Source: a virus
Direction: 5' to 3' (one strand)
Virus record (IMG/VR): IMGVR_UViG_3300029922_000004
Length of the DNA stretch: 64,000 nt
The notes beneath the pieces were generated by a model. The model had not been told where the DNA came from, did not search any database, and worked only from the letters and a program-made list of their open reading frames with translations. This document shows, piece after piece, positions 30,972-47,157 of the stretch; positions within the stretch are counted from its first letter, which is position 1, and the number at the start of each line of letters is the position of its first letter. The translations under genes and the position numbers were made by a program.

Positions 30972-33900
30972 GTGAGTCTTATAAGTCAAATTTACGGGTT
31001 AGCGGCTTCTGCGATATATATACGCTGCGGTTCTGGAAGCAATACCTCTTTAGTTTTACAAGCTTTGAGTAGCGGGCTTGGTGCAACCACTGGGGATGGG
31101 GCTTATGCTTATAATTTATTCTTACAAACCAACCCATTTACTTCTAGTGGTTTCGGCGGAAGCTCTTTATACCAAACACAATTAGAATCGGCGGTATCTT
31201 TATTTGAACCAAACACTTATAGTAAAATAGGTACGGCGGCTATTATTTATGGATTTGCAAACTTCCCCAACGCTGACGAGTCGATTATCACAGAAAAAAT
31301 CAACACTTATTGCCAAGGGGTAACTACCCTTCTCGGAGAAAGCAATAATTATTTTCCACAAAGCGGTCTAGATTATATTCTAGGTCAAATTAATCTTTCT
31401 TTAATAAATTCGGGTATTGCTGAGTCTCCTGAAAACATTACTGGAGTTTCTATCAATTACAACTGGTATAATTCCGCCCCATTATTTGCTAATCCAAATC
31501 CAGATTCTACATTAATCAGAGACGTTGAAAATCAGTATTATTATTTAACGGGACGATTAATTTATTCATCTCTTCCTACTGCACAACCATGTATAGAATA
31601 TATTCGTAATATACAAACGCCCACCGGTATTATCACACTTTCAGTCATTCAGAATACTCCATGTTATGACCCTTCATCCTATATTGGGCCTTATTCAGGG
31701 ATAAATTTTTATAGAGAGTTCAATGACGGCCCCGGAAGTTCTGGGTACTTCGACCTACCTACACTGCAAGAGTTTGTAAATTTGGACAAGGCTATTTTAA
31801 AACCTCACGATTATTCTAGTAATGTGGTGGTTGCTTATTCCCACGAAAAAGACGCCAGCGGTAATTATATTTACCTTGATTCTGGAATGGTAAATGATAT
31901 ACCGGGATTTTATAGTTCGGGGGGCGAATATGGTCATGGTGTTACTAATTTTATTACCAATGATAAATACTGCCCTTGGGAAAATTACCAATTAGAGGGC
32001 GCTCCTTTGATGAGAATGCATCAGGGAGACTCACAAGAAAAATGGTACATTTATAAATACTGCCTTGGATTCAATAGTTATGGGAGTTGCACTGGGTGCG
32101 GTTATCAAAGCGGGTTGTATAACTGGACTGGATGGAAATTCGCCCCGGCGACATTAACAATTCCGCCGAAAAGTCTTATTTCAATTAATATGAACCCAAA
32201 AATGGGTAGTGGGGAAATTTTAAATCGCGTATTGAATCTGGATAATTATCAGAATATAGATTCGAGTATAACTTCCCCTTATTTAAGCGCATATGATTCT
32301 GGTGACGGGGTATTGACTTGCGATGCTTACGTAGGCCCCCCGCAACTTAATGGACAATCTACGATGCCGGGATTTGTTTTTTATCAAACGTTTGATAGCT
32401 ATAATTTTCCAAACACAGGAACAAAAGCAGCCGTAAAAATAAGGGCTGCGGTTGAAAATTCCGATAGGAGTTTTACTATCTCGTCTATTGATTTGGCTTC
32501 TGGATTAGACCCGACTAACCATCTCGTCGGTGGGGGTCACGCAAGCGCGAGCATCATTAAAGTTATCAATTCTTCTGGTCAGTCAGATGACGTTTTACAA
32601 AGCTGTTTGACCATTGGAAATAATTTCGGCAATGTCGCCAGCGGGACTTCTTCACTAGAATCAAACGCGGGATTCTTATATACTGGCTATACTTATTACA
32701 TTAGTGGAAATCCAGTCAATATCTTTGACTTAATGCAGTCTGACTCTTCTACTGTCGGTTCTAAATATTCTCAACTAAAATACGTCGGTGGATATGCAAG
32801 CGGTGTTACTAATTTTTCAATCAGCGACCAATATGCCTTTATAGTCACCGGCGATACTCAAACTGGTATAAACTACACAGGTAAATTATTTTATTATTCT
32901 TATTTTAATGATGGGGTTTTGGGAGCTATGAATACAGGATGGACGGGAAATTTTGCTCCGATTCCAGATGTAGTCGCTAATAATTTACCATACTTCAATC
33001 CTAATTATACGACCCAGCCTGTAGAGAACTATTTACCGCGATATTCAACTGGACCATATCTAACTTATAATAATAAATTCTTATATCCTAATGCCAACTT
33101 TTTCGCTAATTTATACGACTCTAATACTAATGGATTCCCAGTGTCGGTCAATTATGTTATCACTATTAAAGAGGAGACTGTAAGAGAAATTTGTTTGACT
33201 TCTGGATTCGGCGGACAGGTCAATAATAGTTATGTAGTTAGAGCGTCTGCTGCAAGTAATCCGTCTGGCATAGGTACTTTAATGGCTACACCGTTTATTC
33301 CCAACGATTCACTTTATACATATACTTACGATTTTACGCGAAACCAGACGCTTTATCCTGAAAATGGAAATTTTATAAATGAGGCTAATCTAGGAGTGAA
33401 TTTAGTTAATAAAAACTACGTTCCTGATACTAATGGCTGTCCTCAAACAAATGTCAATTCTACACAATATAATTCTAATAATTTATTGTTTAACGCGGGA
33501 GTAAGATATACTGGCCAATTGATAGCTCGAAATATCTATACTGGTACTGCTGGTCAAACCGTAACAGTCAGTGTTTCGGAACCGATAGGCAATGGATTAT
33601 ATTGGGGATATAACGGCTCGCAGATTAGCGGTACTCTTTTATACGCGCCGCCAGTATTCGATTTAGAGACCTACTCTATTAGTCCTTCTAATAATTTGAA
33701 TACTTCGATGATTTTGAACAACATGTATTTAACTAGCCCCGTTTTTTCCAATAATGGTTCTATTAGATATGGCAGTCTTTATGACGGGAACGGAAACTAT
33801 AATGGAAAAGACCCTATATTTTACCAGTATGTCGGGGGGAGAAGCGGAACCAACTCTCAATCCGAGGGGGGTTATCATAGCAGTGGGATAATTGGTGACG

Positions 33901-35603
33901 CTTGGTATAACTTTAATGATGTAAATTGGGGTAATAATTATTATTACTGCAATGATGGGAGAAGTTATGTTCGTTGGCCAGAAAGCGACCAGTCTTTATT
34001 TTTAACAGCATTAACTTCTGGCGGGTTAAATGTATTTGCTAGGAACATGAATTATTATCCTTACTACCTTAATTGGAAGTATAATCCATATACTCTAAGC
34101 ACTCTCCCGACGTATCCGGGGGTATCTGTCACGCCAAGAAAGCTTGGAAGCCAATATTTCTTTGATTTTAACCTAAAAAATAACTTTCCTTTACAAACTG
34201 GGATTGGTGCCGGACTTAACATCGGTCCATTTGATAGGGATATTGAGTTGTGTATTACGGGGCAAAATTCCATAATTCCTAGTGGATACCTGATTATAGA
34301 TGGGGAAATATTAACAGACCCGTCTGCCAATGGGGATGGTTGCGCCTCTAATAACGTGGAGGGCTTTAAAATTAATAGTGGGATAATCCCCAATCAGGGA
34401 AACAGGAATGTCTTTACTACTTTCAAGTTAGTACCATCTGGAAGTATTAGTAATATTAACATATCTGGAACTGGAGTAATTGGTTTGAATTATAACTCTA
34501 TAGTAACTATCAGGCCAAGAACATGTTTCGGCGCGGTTGATTATAGCGCAATTCCTTCGGATTCCCTTCTGTCGGGCGATGTCGGCGTGATGGACAATTT
34601 CTTGTATATTACTAACGGCACAGAAAGCTTGTTTAATTTTCCGATGACTAATAATATTAGTTCGTTAGTTGGCTCAAAAATTGCCTTAACTACTGTTCCG
34701 CGAATAGAGGTTTTGTTTCCGGTGCCGGGGAGTGATTTTGATACGATTCTTAATCCCACGATTGATTCTTTCGGTAATAAGACTTATAGACAAGCTAATC
34801 CCACCCAATATTATTGGTCTCAAAAAACTCCGGGCGCAATGTATAGCGGATTACGAGAAACTACGCGAGTTTATCTTCATATTGACTCCCTATCGGCAAA
34901 CATAGGACAGACACCATACCAAGCCTACCAAACCATTATTCCATCGGGTTCATGCACTATTAGCGGAACTTTTGCTTATACTGGTCAGGCTGAGAGTTCA
35001 ATATTGACTGACGGAATAGTTTTGTCGGGAATATCAGGAGCGAGTTCACTGACTGGAATATTTACCCCAATTTACGTTTCTGACGTAATGCAAAGATTAC
35101 CGAGCGGGATAGAAGTTCTGCCTTCAGGAAGTGGTATAAGTCCGGTGTTATCTGCGCCGTCTTATATGAAGAAGAGGAAGAATTATTTTCAAATTACGGG
35201 CGGGGACGCTTATATAGAGACCTCACCTGTTCCTACTGGATTTTCGTATTACTACAACGCCTTCTTATGGCCAGCGTGGAGCGATTTAGCCCTGTTAAAT
35301 CCTAATATAGTATATGAGGCGATGCCGCCGGACGACGGGAATACTTTTTTGGGTAGTTATCTAACTTTTAGTGCGTGTCAAGGGCAAAATGTGGGAACAG
35401 GTTATAATCCTATTGAGAATGTAACTTATGGAGTTACTAGTCAGTGGGCGTTTTTGGATGGTATTTCAACTAATGCTCTTTATAATACGGGTAAGTGTAT
35501 ATTTTCGGGAGCGGCGGGGCAGACTACTTTAACCAGTGGAAATCTTTCGGGAATATTAACGGCACAGGGAAATTCGTTGACGATGGCTATTAATTTAAGA
35601 TAA
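30972..35603 (+). CDS. Large virion/tail-associated protein, (S/T)-G rich
   Basis: 1543 aa, co-oriented with and 10 nt after the previous gene, same composition. Confidence 0.6.
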   Translation: MSLISQIYGLAASAIYIRCGSGSNTSLVLQALSSGLGATTGDGAYAYNLFLQTNPFTSSGFGGSSLYQTQLESAVSLFEPNTYSKIGTAAIIYGFANFPNADESIITEKINTYCQGVTTLLGESNNYFPQSGLDYILGQINLSLINSGIAESPENITGVSINYNWYNSAPLFANPNPDSTLIRDVENQYYYLTGRLIYSSLPTAQPCIEYIRNIQTPTGIITLSVIQNTPCYDPSSYIGPYSGINFYREFNDGPGSSGYFDLPTLQEFVNLDKAILKPHDYSSNVVVAYSHEKDASGNYIYLDSGMVNDIPGFYSSGGEYGHGVTNFITNDKYCPWENYQLEGAPLMRMHQGDSQEKWYIYKYCLGFNSYGSCTGCGYQSGLYNWTGWKFAPATLTIPPKSLISINMNPKMGSGEILNRVLNLDNYQNIDSSITSPYLSAYDSGDGVLTCDAYVGPPQLNGQSTMPGFVFYQTFDSYNFPNTGTKAAVKIRAAVENSDRSFTISSIDLASGLDPTNHLVGGGHASASIIKVINSSGQSDDVLQSCLTIGNNFGNVASGTSSLESNAGFLYTGYTYYISGNPVNIFDLMQSDSSTVGSKYSQLKYVGGYASGVTNFSISDQYAFIVTGDTQTGINYTGKLFYYSYFNDGVLGAMNTGWTGNFAPIPDVVANNLPYFNPNYTTQPVENYLPRYSTGPYLTYNNKFLYPNANFFANLYDSNTNGFPVSVNYVITIKEETVREICLTSGFGGQVNNSYVVRASAASNPSGIGTLMATPFIPNDSLYTYTYDFTRNQTLYPENGNFINEANLGVNLVNKNYVPDTNGCPQTNVNSTQYNSNNLLFNAGVRYTGQLIARNIYTGTAGQTVTVSVSEPIGNGLYWGYNGSQISGTLLYAPPVFDLETYSISPSNNLNTSMILNNMYLTSPVFSNNGSIRYGSLYDGNGNYNGKDPIFYQYVGGRSGTNSQSEGGYHSSGIIGDAWYNFNDVNWGNNYYYCNDGRSYVRWPESDQSLFLTALTSGGLNVFARNMNYYPYYLNWKYNPYTLSTLPTYPGVSVTPRKLGSQYFFDFNLKNNFPLQTGIGAGLNIGPFDRDIELCITGQNSIIPSGYLIIDGEILTDPSANGDGCASNNVEGFKINSGIIPNQGNRNVFTTFKLVPSGSISNINISGTGVIGLNYNSIVTIRPRTCFGAVDYSAIPSDSLLSGDVGVMDNFLYITNGTESLFNFPMTNNISSLVGSKIALTTVPRIEVLFPVPGSDFDTILNPTIDSFGNKTYRQANPTQYYWSQKTPGAMYSGLRETTRVYLHIDSLSANIGQTPYQAYQTIIPSGSCTISGTFAYTGQAESSILTDGIVLSGISGASSLTGIFTPIYVSDVMQRLPSGIEVLPSGSGISPVLSAPSYMKKRKNYFQITGGDAYIETSPVPTGFSYYYNAFLWPAWSDLALLNPNIVYEAMPPDDGNTFLGSYLTFSACQGQNVGTGYNPIENVTYGVTSQWAFLDGISTNALYNTGKCIFSGAAGQTTLTSGNLSGILTAQGNSLTMAINLR

Positions 35604-37387: not shown

Positions 37388-38236
37388 ATGAATAACATTA
37401 TTGATTTAATAGGCCAAGATAAAGAAATAACCACACTAACAGATATCGTATATCATACGTTCCCGTTAAAGGATTTTGGTTCTTTAAGAGAGATTCGGGC
37501 TTTTTTACATAAAAATGGAGGTATTTATTCTTGGTTTGATTCAGAGACGCGAAAAATATACATAGGCAGCAGTAAAAATTTATGGAGACGATTTCTTTCA
37601 TATAAAAATTCCTTCTTTTATGGTAAAACAAAAAGAGTAAATATTAAATTGCTTCATAGGGTTGAAAAAGTAGGAATTAAAAATATCAAATTCTTTGTAT
37701 TGGAGCTTTTTAATAAAGAAGAGCTAGAACTTAGAAAACTAGAGCAGGAATATCTTGATAAATGTCTACCATTTGGTAAAAATGGATTTAATATACGTAA
37801 AAGCACCATTGTATATAAACCCAAACTCTTACCACAAGAAGTAATTGATAAGATAATCGAAACCCACACTGGGGAAAATTCTTCAAATGCTATCTTGACT
37901 AATGATGCCGTTTTATTAATAAAAAAACAATTAATTAGCGGCGTAAAACTTAAACCCATCTCCAAAGAATTTAAAGTATCAACTACGGTCATTAGTAATA
38001 TCAAAAGAGGCCTTACTTGGTCGCATATAAAATTATCCGAAAAAGAAGAAGAGCAATTAAAATTACTCGTCGAGCGCGATAAACGGCTCAATCTTCCACG
38101 CGAACTCATAAAATCCATTAAACGAGACATAAAATCTGGTATAAAAATGAATTTACTTGCTAAAAAATATAATTTAGGATACACTTGTATAACTGGTTTA
38201 AAATATGGTTCTTTTTATAAAGAAATCAATCCGTAA
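37388..38236 (+). mobile_element. GIY-YIG homing endonuclease, antisense between the dnaE halves
   Basis: GGIYSWFDSETRKIYIGSSKNLWRR, EQEYLD, GFN, then HTGENSSNAILT and two HTH-like repeats. Confidence 0.88.
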
Positions 38237-41621: not shown

Positions 41622-42029
41622 TTATGATTTTAATAAGTCTGGAGTTTCACAGATATTACCTAAAAGAGTAATGGGGTCTGGTAGCCCGACGCCAGAATAC
41701 TTATGTTGTTTAAATCTCTTGGTAAATCCCCGAAATCCCGTATGTTTATCGCACCAATCCACAAAATACACTACATCAAATCCAATTTCATCATTCCAAT
41801 CGTCATAGCATTTGACAGAAACGATATCACCCTCATAAATTTCTACCCCGTTTTTATCTTTTAATCCAGTAAATTGTTGGGGGTAATTTTCCCCGACTTC
41901 CAACGGCGCTCCATCAATATTCCATACGAATCCCATAGTAGGAACGTATTCGCAATAACGAAATCGTTTTTCTTCTGGAATCCAGACGCGGAATTTAATT
42001 GCTCGGTTAGATGATGGTTGGATTGTCAT
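41622..42029 (-). CDS. YopX family protein
   Basis: IKFRVW...QQFTGLKDKNGVEIYEGDIV...LGNICETPDLL. Confidence 0.9.
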   Translation of the reverse strand: MTIQPSSNRAIKFRVWIPEEKRFRYCEYVPTMGFVWNIDGAPLEVGENYPQQFTGLKDKNGVEIYEGDIVSVKCYDDWNDEIGFDVVYFVDWCDKHTGFRGFTKRFKQHKYSGVGLPDPITLLGNICETPDLLKS

Positions 42030-46191: not shown

Positions 46192-47051
46192 ACGTATTCC
46201 CATTTGAAACCGCCAGAAGTTTTGGCTTTTCCCTTACAGACCTTCACAATTCCACCGGCTTCTATATTTAATGCTTTTGACGCTATTCTAATTCCATCCC
46301 ATATTTTTATAATTTGGCCAGTCTTTTTATCTATTTGTTTAACAGACTTTCTTTTGTCTTTGTTATTGTTACTTAATTTGGATTTGCACGTGGCTTTGAT
46401 TTTTAATTTTATATGCTCTGGCATAATTCTACCGACATTATATTTGTTCCCCATATTAGCTTTAGAGATTCTTTCTCTAACTTTTTTAGAGTGTGTCTTC
46501 CCAAAAAACGGATTATCTTCTCCTAGTCTGGTATTTTTAAGTGAACTTGATATTTTATTTTTTGTGTCTATAGATAGTTTCTTGCCCTCGTGGGAATGAG
46601 AGATTTTATTACGTATTTTTTTTGAAAGGTGTTTTCCGAAACCCTTATGGTTTTTCCCGCTTCTTGATGCGTATATTCTTTTCTTTTCTTCTCCAGAAAA
46701 AACTCTCAAATTAAAATTTCTACCGATTAGACATACATTATATCCGTGTCCAAACTCTGTTAATGATTTATAGAAGTCAATAAACGCTGTTTCCAACGCA
46801 ACCACCTCCAAAATATCTACGTTCTTATCATCAAAGAAGTGAAGGATTTCTATTTTAAAATTATCTTTACCATATTTAATCATTGCATGATTAATTGGAT
46901 TGTTTGGATGATTTTTGTAATAATATGCTGCAATGCGTCTTTTTAAATTTGTACTCATGCCAACATATCTTTTATTATCTATGATATTTGTGAATAAATA
47001 TATACCCGGTAATTTCGGAATAGTATCTTTGATTTTAGTATAAAAGTTCAT
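46188..47051 (-). mobile_element. GIY-YIG homing endonuclease with NUMOD3 repeats and NUMOD1 HTH
   Basis: PGIYLFTNIIDNKRYVGMSTNLKRR; ETAFI; GYN; repeated GxxNPFFGKTHS-type units; KSVKQID...SGGFKWEY. Confidence 0.9.
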
Positions 47052-47053
47052 TT

Positions 47054-47144
47054 CTATCCTATGGTAACGCAGTCAGGGGTAAGCCTAGAAGTCCCTTCTA
47101 AGGGGAACATAGGATAGTAAAATTTCTTACCGTTTGCTGCGTTA
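47054..47144 (-). ncRNA. Candidate structured 5' leader (pseudoknot-capable) of the GIY-YIG gene
   Basis: Complementary pairs: 47137-47144/47065-47072 (8 bp), 47126-47131/47078-47083 (6 bp), 47108-47117/47054-47063 (10 bp, crossing the first two), plus hairpin 47084-47103. Confidence 0.6.
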
Positions 47145-47150
47145 AAATAT

Positions 47151-47157
47151 ATTACAC
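47151..47157 (-). promoter_or_regulatory. GTGTAAT box (putative late promoter)
   Basis: 6 nt upstream of the first stem of the structured leader. Confidence 0.55.

Follow-up and report, generated by a model that had tools for sequence, protein, structure and literature searches.

Homing endonucleases must be expressed without harm to the genes between which they land, and to our knowledge the only well-studied solution is the hairpin of T4, with a late promoter between its arms. Here we analyse a 91-nt leader (47144-47054, minus strand; leader position 1 is 47144) that precedes a free-standing homing endonuclease gene in a window of 64,000 nucleotides, the whole stretch of DNA studied, from IMG/VR virus record IMGVR_UViG_3300029922_000004. 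The source is an uncultured phage from peat, in which the selfish nuclease gene sits between a helicase gene and a primase gene. The locus suggests another solution: a scaffolded long-range helix would hide the endonuclease start, and a 37-codon open reading frame (ORF) bridging the helicase-endonuclease gap, hereafter the mini-ORF, would together with stop-start overlaps re-stitch the coupling of helicase to primase. The transposase leaders of IS200 and IS10 likewise contain structures that occlude the ribosome-binding site (RBS) and shield a selfish gene from read-through expression, as proposed here, but they differ in serving transposases and in using a terminator hairpin and an antisense RNA, and they have no sequence similarity to the leader.

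Structures that sequester the RBS regulate the T4-type homing endonucleases I-TevI, I-TevII, I-TevIII, segB and Aeh1 mobE (PMC2988022). As in those systems, the endonuclease gene studied here lies co-directionally in an early/middle operon of replication and nucleotide-metabolism genes (PMC2988022), has its own late-type promoter box, and has its Shine-Dalgarno (SD) sequence in a stable helix, here a predicted one. However, the T4-type late promoter lies between the two arms, so that late transcripts lack the 5' arm (PMC2988022), whereas the box here is upstream of both arms; and in place of a simple hairpin, the occluding helix here is long-range, with strands 44 nt apart, crosses a three-helix scaffold and is accompanied by the bridging mini-ORF. 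In seg43(25) of Aeromonas phage 25, a very stable hairpin has its foot just 5' of the RBS and excludes it, as does the scaffold of helices A, B and P3 in this leader, but unlike here no extra RBS-capturing helix and no mini-ORF have been described (PMC2988022). In translationally coupled gene pairs, structure often silences the downstream gene, and translation of the upstream gene unfolds that structure (PMC12548453). The present locus resembles such pairs in that the downstream start pairs with the interior of the upstream ORF and stop-start distances are a few nucleotides; it departs from them in that the upstream ORF is a 37-codon orphan in a gap apparently made by insertion, and in that the mini-ORF would itself need reinitiation after the helicase, giving a relay of three couplings. 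The leader of T4 gene 32 is likewise of pseudoknot type, lies in a phage replication-region mRNA and is tied to translational repression, but its knot is a small classical H-type one, 67 nt upstream, which nucleates binding of the gene's own protein and makes no pairs with the RBS, unlike the fold proposed here (PMC3014915). The most probable function of this leader belongs to the known control of endonucleases and of translationally coupled genes; it is the leader that is unusual in form. The phage itself is very distant from T4-type phages, and most of its genes appear leaderless or translationally coupled.

Our favoured reading, which we hold tentatively and with slightly less than even confidence, is that the leader acts in cis as a translational gate on an endonuclease cassette inserted in a coupled helicase-primase pair. 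Its elements are the following.

47157-47151, minus strand: GTGTAAT box, a clade-conserved promoter-like start signal, 6 nt 5' of helix A.
47167-47054, minus strand: mini-ORF of 37 codons, ATG to TAG, which fills the 121-nt gap and was missed in the sequence-only reading of this locus.
47144-47137 with 47072-47065, minus strand: helix A, 8 bp, 5' strand UAACGCAG, found in the sequence, by inverted-repeat search and by folding.
47131-47126 with 47083-47078, minus strand: helix B, 6 bp, 5' strand GGUAAG, found in the sequence and by folding.
47117-47108, minus strand: strand C, CUAUCCUAUG, in the 22-nt loop between B and P3, which pairs with C'.
47103-47084, minus strand: hairpin P3, a stem of 8 bp interrupted by a single bulged U, loop GGA, directly adjoining B'.
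47065-47083, minus strand: the 3' strands B' (47083-47078) and A' (47072-47065), with CCUGA between them.
47063-47054, minus strand: strand C', CAUAGGAUAG, which includes AGGA and the mini-ORF stop UAG and ends 2 nt 5' of the endonuclease AUG.

The leader sequence and every pairing first claimed for it (helices of 8, 6 and 10 bp, and the hairpin) are exact on the minus strand. Strands C and C' form a perfect 10-bp helix, and when one A-A mismatch is allowed the inverted-repeat search extends it to 12 of 13 positions, up to the A of the endonuclease AUG. The sequence also bears out the claim that this helix contains AGGA and ends 2 nt before the start codon: AGGA occupies 47060-47057, 5 nt 5' of the AUG at 47051, and both the SD sequence and the approach to the start codon are predicted to lie inside C:C'. 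The spacers are 5 nt between A and B, 8 nt between B and C, 4 nt between C and P3, 5 nt between B' and A', and 1 nt between A' and C'. Across the gene starts of the window, SD-like sequences at -6 to -12 are rare, with clear cases at 42029, 47051 and 58989 on the minus strand and 26210 on the plus strand, and most genes overlap or abut a neighbour or follow a promoter box; against this background, the AGGA ahead of the internal start of the endonuclease is conspicuous.

The helices are far denser than shuffled sequence yields. Our score adds up the lengths of perfect Watson-Crick helices that do not overlap and have 6 bp or more; it is 30 for the leader, against a mean of 4.5 and a maximum of 24 in dinucleotide shuffles, none of 5000 matching it. 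When the statistic is slid over the 64 kb, the leader is the top 96-nt window, and A/B:B'/A' is the longest inverted repeat of the window. Pure chance is not credible as the origin of this helix cluster. The pseudoknot-free fold of the 93-nt leader reaches -25.0 kcal/mol (z = -3.06), and a 136-nt piece, in which AU-rich flanks weaken the signal, has a z of only -1.13. As drawn, helices A, B and P3 give -20.9 kcal/mol, the best fold with C:C' enforced gives -19.3 kcal/mol, and the C:C' duplex alone gives -12.7 kcal/mol. Elsewhere in the window, the second-densest helix cluster (32209-32465; statistic 24-25 versus 30) lies inside an ORF of 1543 amino acids (aa) at 30972-35603.

The leader had been described as intergenic. 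The gap is real, but it is spanned by the mini-ORF and is not simply intergenic. Between the helicase stop and the mini-ORF ATG lie 5 nt, and between the mini-ORF TAG (47056-47054) and the endonuclease ATG 2 nt; the two remaining sense frames of the gap are broken by 5 and 4 stops. When the gap was dinucleotide-shuffled 20,000 times, a frame of 37 or more codons arose at a frequency of 0.0003 and a bridging one at 0.0011, and the bridging mini-ORF is non-random. It is interlocked with the helices: strand C corresponds to codons 17-20, an internal ATG (codon 20, 47110-47108) stands at the end of strand C, and C' ends with the three bases of the stop codon. Codons 4-6 contain the GTGTAAT box, so a promoter-initiated RNA would lack the first mini-ORF AUG. 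The protein library contains a 37-aa record identical to the mini-ORF product, and no Pfam or PHROG family matches it. We considered and rejected a decayed GIY-YIG N-terminus (GVIY...YYP), there being no Pfam or PHROG match and no BLASTP alignment to the endonuclease; the HMMER matches of the mini-ORF are to repeat units of Rib-domain surface proteins, whose 10-12 repeats inflate the scores, and were judged chance. No intrinsic terminator is present in the leader on either strand, and no U-run follows A', B' or P3; a stem with a U-tract terminator, the mark of a leader-peptide transcription attenuator, is thus absent.

The genes on either side of the leader and the promoter that heads them are, in transcriptional order:

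48692-48664, minus strand: sigma70-like promoter of the helicase gene, TTGACT, 17 nt and TATAGT, with TG, ending 9 nt 5' of the helicase ATG.
48654-47173, minus strand: DnaB-type replicative helicase gene (Pfam DnaB and DnaB_C; PHROG 19), with its stop TAA at 47175-47173.
47051-46188, minus strand: free-standing GIY-YIG/NUMOD3 homing endonuclease gene, 287 aa (Pfam GIY-YIG, NUMOD3 and I-HmuI NUMOD-like; PHROG 314).
46191-45307, minus strand: DNA primase gene (Pfam Toprim), with its true ATG at 46191-46189.

The Pfam assignment to GIY-YIG/NUMOD3 upholds the view that the leader belongs to a homing endonuclease. The endonuclease gene runs from the AUG at 47051 to a TGA at 46190-46188, and its frame is closed 21 nt 5' of that ATG. 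The public gene call (P0001, 256 aa) begins at Met32, 3' of the GIY motif (residues 16-18), and its start codon is mis-called. In an alignment with three relatives, the conserved N-terminus of the primase begins at the Met encoded by 46191-46189, and because of this the endonuclease stop and the primase start are seen to overlap as ATGA. Successive reading frames are thus separated by 5 nt (helicase/mini-ORF), by 2 nt (mini-ORF/endonuclease) and by an overlap (endonuclease/primase). No terminator-like site was found between helicase and endonuclease on the minus strand.

To place this junction among its relatives, 82 related loci were gathered with the window helicase and then with an alignment of four helicases, and 74 of them carry both genes (L025-L106). 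In 57 of the 74, the distance from helicase stop to primase start is -8 to +13 nt, and the two genes abut in L025, L026 and L027. The other 17 carry an inserted gene between helicase and primase, and 16 of these 17 share an identical 640-nt gap. Two inserts were inspected: the gap of L043 (4988-5644) is a Thy1/ThyX ORF that overlaps both neighbours, and in L094 (3499-4125), the one locus without the 640-nt gap, a CoiA-like nuclease ORF does the same. A non-coding helicase-primase spacer, this endonuclease or this leader was found in none of the 74. Because it is absent from all 74 relatives, whose two genes abut or enclose overlapping inserts, the segment 47172-46192 (promoter box, leader and endonuclease ORF to its stop) is an inserted cassette. 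The helicase-primase junction is an insertion hot spot of the clade, and contiguous translation across it seems to be preserved despite the inserts. We also asked whether the 5' end of the leader could be a remnant of the ancestral primase 5' end and rejected this, local alignments being no better than those of shuffles (P 0.08 to 0.7).

Exact copies of GTGTAAT begin at six places in the window.

8046, plus strand: GTGTAAT.
16580, plus strand: GTGTAAT.
26177, plus strand: GTGTAAT.
37372, plus strand: GTGTAAT.
47157, minus strand: GTGTAAT, the copy at the leader.
49003, minus strand: GTGTAAT.

All six are intergenic and on the same strand as the next gene, with an ATG 7-9 nt later in four, 26 nt later in one and 93 nt later at the leader. 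In relatives, 26 of 68 copies have the ATG of a long ORF 7-12 nt later (e.g., L026:3670); among these is the small ORF that precedes the helicase, whose orthologue keeps GTGTAAT ahead of it in genomes with helicases only 34-68% identical. Owing to these co-oriented intergenic copies and the conservation before ATGs in relatives, GTGTAAT is a real, conserved start signal. Most simply, it would be a clade-wide, -10-like single-box promoter giving leaderless or near-leaderless mRNAs. From the spacing elsewhere, transcription at the leader is predicted to start at 47144-47141, the foot of helix A. This prediction agrees with the earlier placement of the first stem at the presumed transcription start, 6 nt after GTGTAAT, a spacing that is exact. 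Of the earlier name "late box", the box itself is genuine, given all six window copies and the relatives, and "late" stays presumptive. A second GIY-YIG gene of the phage, at 37388, is antisense to its neighbours and 28% identical to the endonuclease downstream of the leader; its ATG follows GTGTAAT by 9 nt, and a leader is missing, which suggests that the leader goes with co-directional embedding in an operon.

The mini-ORF, the ATGA overlap and the insertion shift the reading from a free-standing riboregulator to structure-gated translational coupling, a known kind of mechanism. Of the "complex translational switch" suggested before, translational control is the best reading, whereas the free-standing riboregulator gives way. 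The modelled parts of the proposed gate are formation of C:C', translation of the mini-ORF and reinitiation. An untranslated leader would fold, and the scaffold of A, B and P3 would keep C in a loop near C'; C:C' would then hide the endonuclease start, and free ribosomes could not load. On the early polycistronic mRNA, some ribosomes finishing the helicase would reinitiate at the mini-ORF AUG and unwind the helices, stop 2 nt before the endonuclease AUG, reinitiate there aided by AGGA, and then be handed to the primase via ATGA. The outcome would be a low, relayed level of nuclease and a continued supply of ribosomes to the essential primase. A transcript started at GTGTAAT would lack the first mini-ORF AUG and begin with helix A; repression of translation would then be the main effect of the fold, perhaps along with stabilisation of the RNA.

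A bolder version, in which a ribosome-operated pseudoknot relay makes the endonuclease the obligatory translational conduit from helicase to primase, all other entries being blocked, we regard as decidedly unlikely. If it were true, loss or silencing of the selfish gene would starve the primase, a "translational addiction"; we know of no such device described for homing endonucleases.

Several points weigh against the translational gate. The first is that the leader is a singleton, with no homologous leader in any collection searched. Among 5.8 billion proteins, the best match to the endonuclease outside its own cluster has 37% identity; nothing comparable precedes 16 IMG/VR homologues of the endonuclease, whose upstream regions are AT-rich giant-virus or intron contexts; two 19-20-mers of the leader have no match in IMG/VR; no relatives of the helicase were found in GTDB genomes; and no look-alike of the leader was found in the other scanned windows of the genome. 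The window as a whole has no DNA match among 50,697 phage records (megablast, blastn), and its helicase is less than 30% identical to any cultured-phage helicase. The stretch is present in peat metagenome runs, and the leader recurs unchanged in four further peat runs (DNA contigs). These four runs showed no cassette-free contig, but their cover is so thin and fragmented that the absence proves little. With a singleton in identical copies, the helices offer no covariation to test.

The second group of points concerns the knot. In pseudoknot-free ensembles, A and B have a probability near 1 and C:C' near 0, and such folding gives no difference between early- and late-type transcripts, A and B forming in both; hiding of the start thus depends on adding C:C' to the scaffold. 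The topology fits H-type pairing, with C in the loop closed by B and C' 3' of A', but the 1-nt A'-C' linker would have to span 14 bp and a 5x5 internal loop, and the full knot is sterically doubtful. On geometric grounds, a classical coaxial H-type pseudoknot has no room for all three long helices at once, which would coexist only if the leader bent sharply at the internal loop or frayed somewhat. By the same reasoning, C could adopt its 10-bp helix beside the B/P3 junction with linkers of 8 and 4 nt, and with A open, B, P3 and C:C' would make an ordinary pseudoknot whose loops measure 8 and 14 nt. The leader may therefore fairly be called pseudoknot-capable, as it had been, but that it is almost fully paired at once is unproven, given the 1-nt linker.

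Strand symmetry, which the sequence-only reading did not note, is the main reason why our confidence in the translational gate stays below one half. All 32 pairs are Watson-Crick with no G-U pair, and the antisense (plus-strand) RNA folds better than the sense RNA (-31.6 kcal/mol, z = -3.36, vs -25.0 kcal/mol), so the sequence as it reads does not favour a sense RNA over a DNA palindrome or an antisense RNA. On the side of expression, no second GTGTAAT box or sigma70-like site lies between the C and C' arms on the minus strand. With GTGTAAT upstream of both arms, the late-escape logic of T4 fails and the purpose of the promoter is unexplained. The mini-ORF has no SD sequence and no homologue, and its translation is a prediction. 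Finally, were the endonuclease tightly repressed, the primase coupled to it would be starved as well if the relay did not work.

The alternative that survives best, unlikely though realistic in our view, is a plain constitutive repressor and stabiliser, in which the mini-ORF is untranslated and a toxic nuclease is kept very low on every transcript. The 5'-terminal helix A would guard the promoter-initiated RNA from 5'-end-dependent decay, and the whole would amount to the hairpin of T4 mobE or I-TevI with no temporal switch. Coverage of AGGA by C:C', which approaches the AUG, and the predicted start at the foot of helix A both fit this view, as do the RBS-sequestering hairpins of T4-type endonucleases and the stable hairpin just 5' of the seg43(25) RBS (PMC2988022). 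What it leaves unexplained is the open 37-codon frame that reaches so exactly across the gap between helicase and endonuclease (P about 0.001) and the translation of the ATGA-coupled primase.

Improbable, next, is a feature of the DNA or of the opposite strand: a cruciform, a protein-binding site, an insertion or repair scar, or a stable antisense RNA against the endonuclease start, for which RNA-OUT of IS10 is the model. The 32 of 32 Watson-Crick pairs and the better plus-strand fold (-31.6 kcal/mol, z -3.36) speak for such a feature, as do the insertion hot spot at the junction and a weak plus-strand sigma70-like site (46957-46985) that points into the leader. However, plus-strand promoter matches are no better than in shuffles (13 found vs 9.3 expected), neither strand has a U-tract terminator, and the inverted repeats are interleaved and spaced 42-44 bp, unlike operators. 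Since neither the window nor the other scanned windows of the genome contain a second copy, the leader is not a repeated mobile element. A miniature inverted-repeat transposable element or an IS200/IS605-derived palindrome was likewise rejected, there being no second copy in the window and no IMG/VR match of the 19-20-mers.

By analogy with the intergenic R sites of T7 and the N leader of lambda, the stacked A, B and P3 (about 22 bp plus the internal loop) might be an RNase III-type processing site, whose cutting would part the helicase mRNA from the endonuclease-primase mRNA; we consider this very improbable. The layout speaks for it: two stems enclose a symmetric 5x5 internal loop, one more hairpin is coaxial with them, and the whole lies between two genes of a polycistronic early transcript. 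But the 22-nt bulge breaks the stack between B and P3, C:C' and the mini-ORF would have no role, and there is no homologous site for comparison.

A self-cleaving ribozyme or a new class of endonuclease-associated structured RNA, as had been suggested, is scarcely credible, for only the pairing density and pseudoknot-like topology speak for it, whereas no Rfam family appears at E up to 10 with lax filters and no tRNA or transfer-messenger RNA (tmRNA), the leader is absent from relatives and from upstream of distant endonuclease homologues, its strand order resembles that of hepatitis delta virus (HDV) only superficially (by our reading of the sequence, a P3 of 8 bp closed by a 3-nt loop has no space for P1.1), and a reading frame runs through the whole element. 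The searches behind this were an Rfam 15 scan of 1.2 kb at E up to 10, which takes in the hatchet, GIR1 and group I intron families among others, with no match in the leader; a lax-filter scan of 156 nt, with two chance matches (10.8 and 9.8 bits vs gathering scores of 40 and 127); and ARAGORN, with no tRNA or tmRNA. They agree with the earlier statement that the leader matches neither hammerhead, HDV, twister or pistol ribozymes nor common riboswitches. The label "undescribed class" cannot stand on one sequence with no homologue and no covariation.

The translational gate is supported by one sequence, in silico. If true, it would show a selfish gene joining, and perhaps becoming indispensable to, the translational wiring of its host, and it would provide a compact natural part for structure-gated coupling.

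The replication block around the cassette is crowded with selfish elements. The segment 49050-51633 on the minus strand encodes a 727-aa ATPase-like protein with a LAGLIDADG/Hom_end (intein-type) insert and, next after it with a 14-nt overlap, a DUF559 (Vsr-like endonuclease) ORF.

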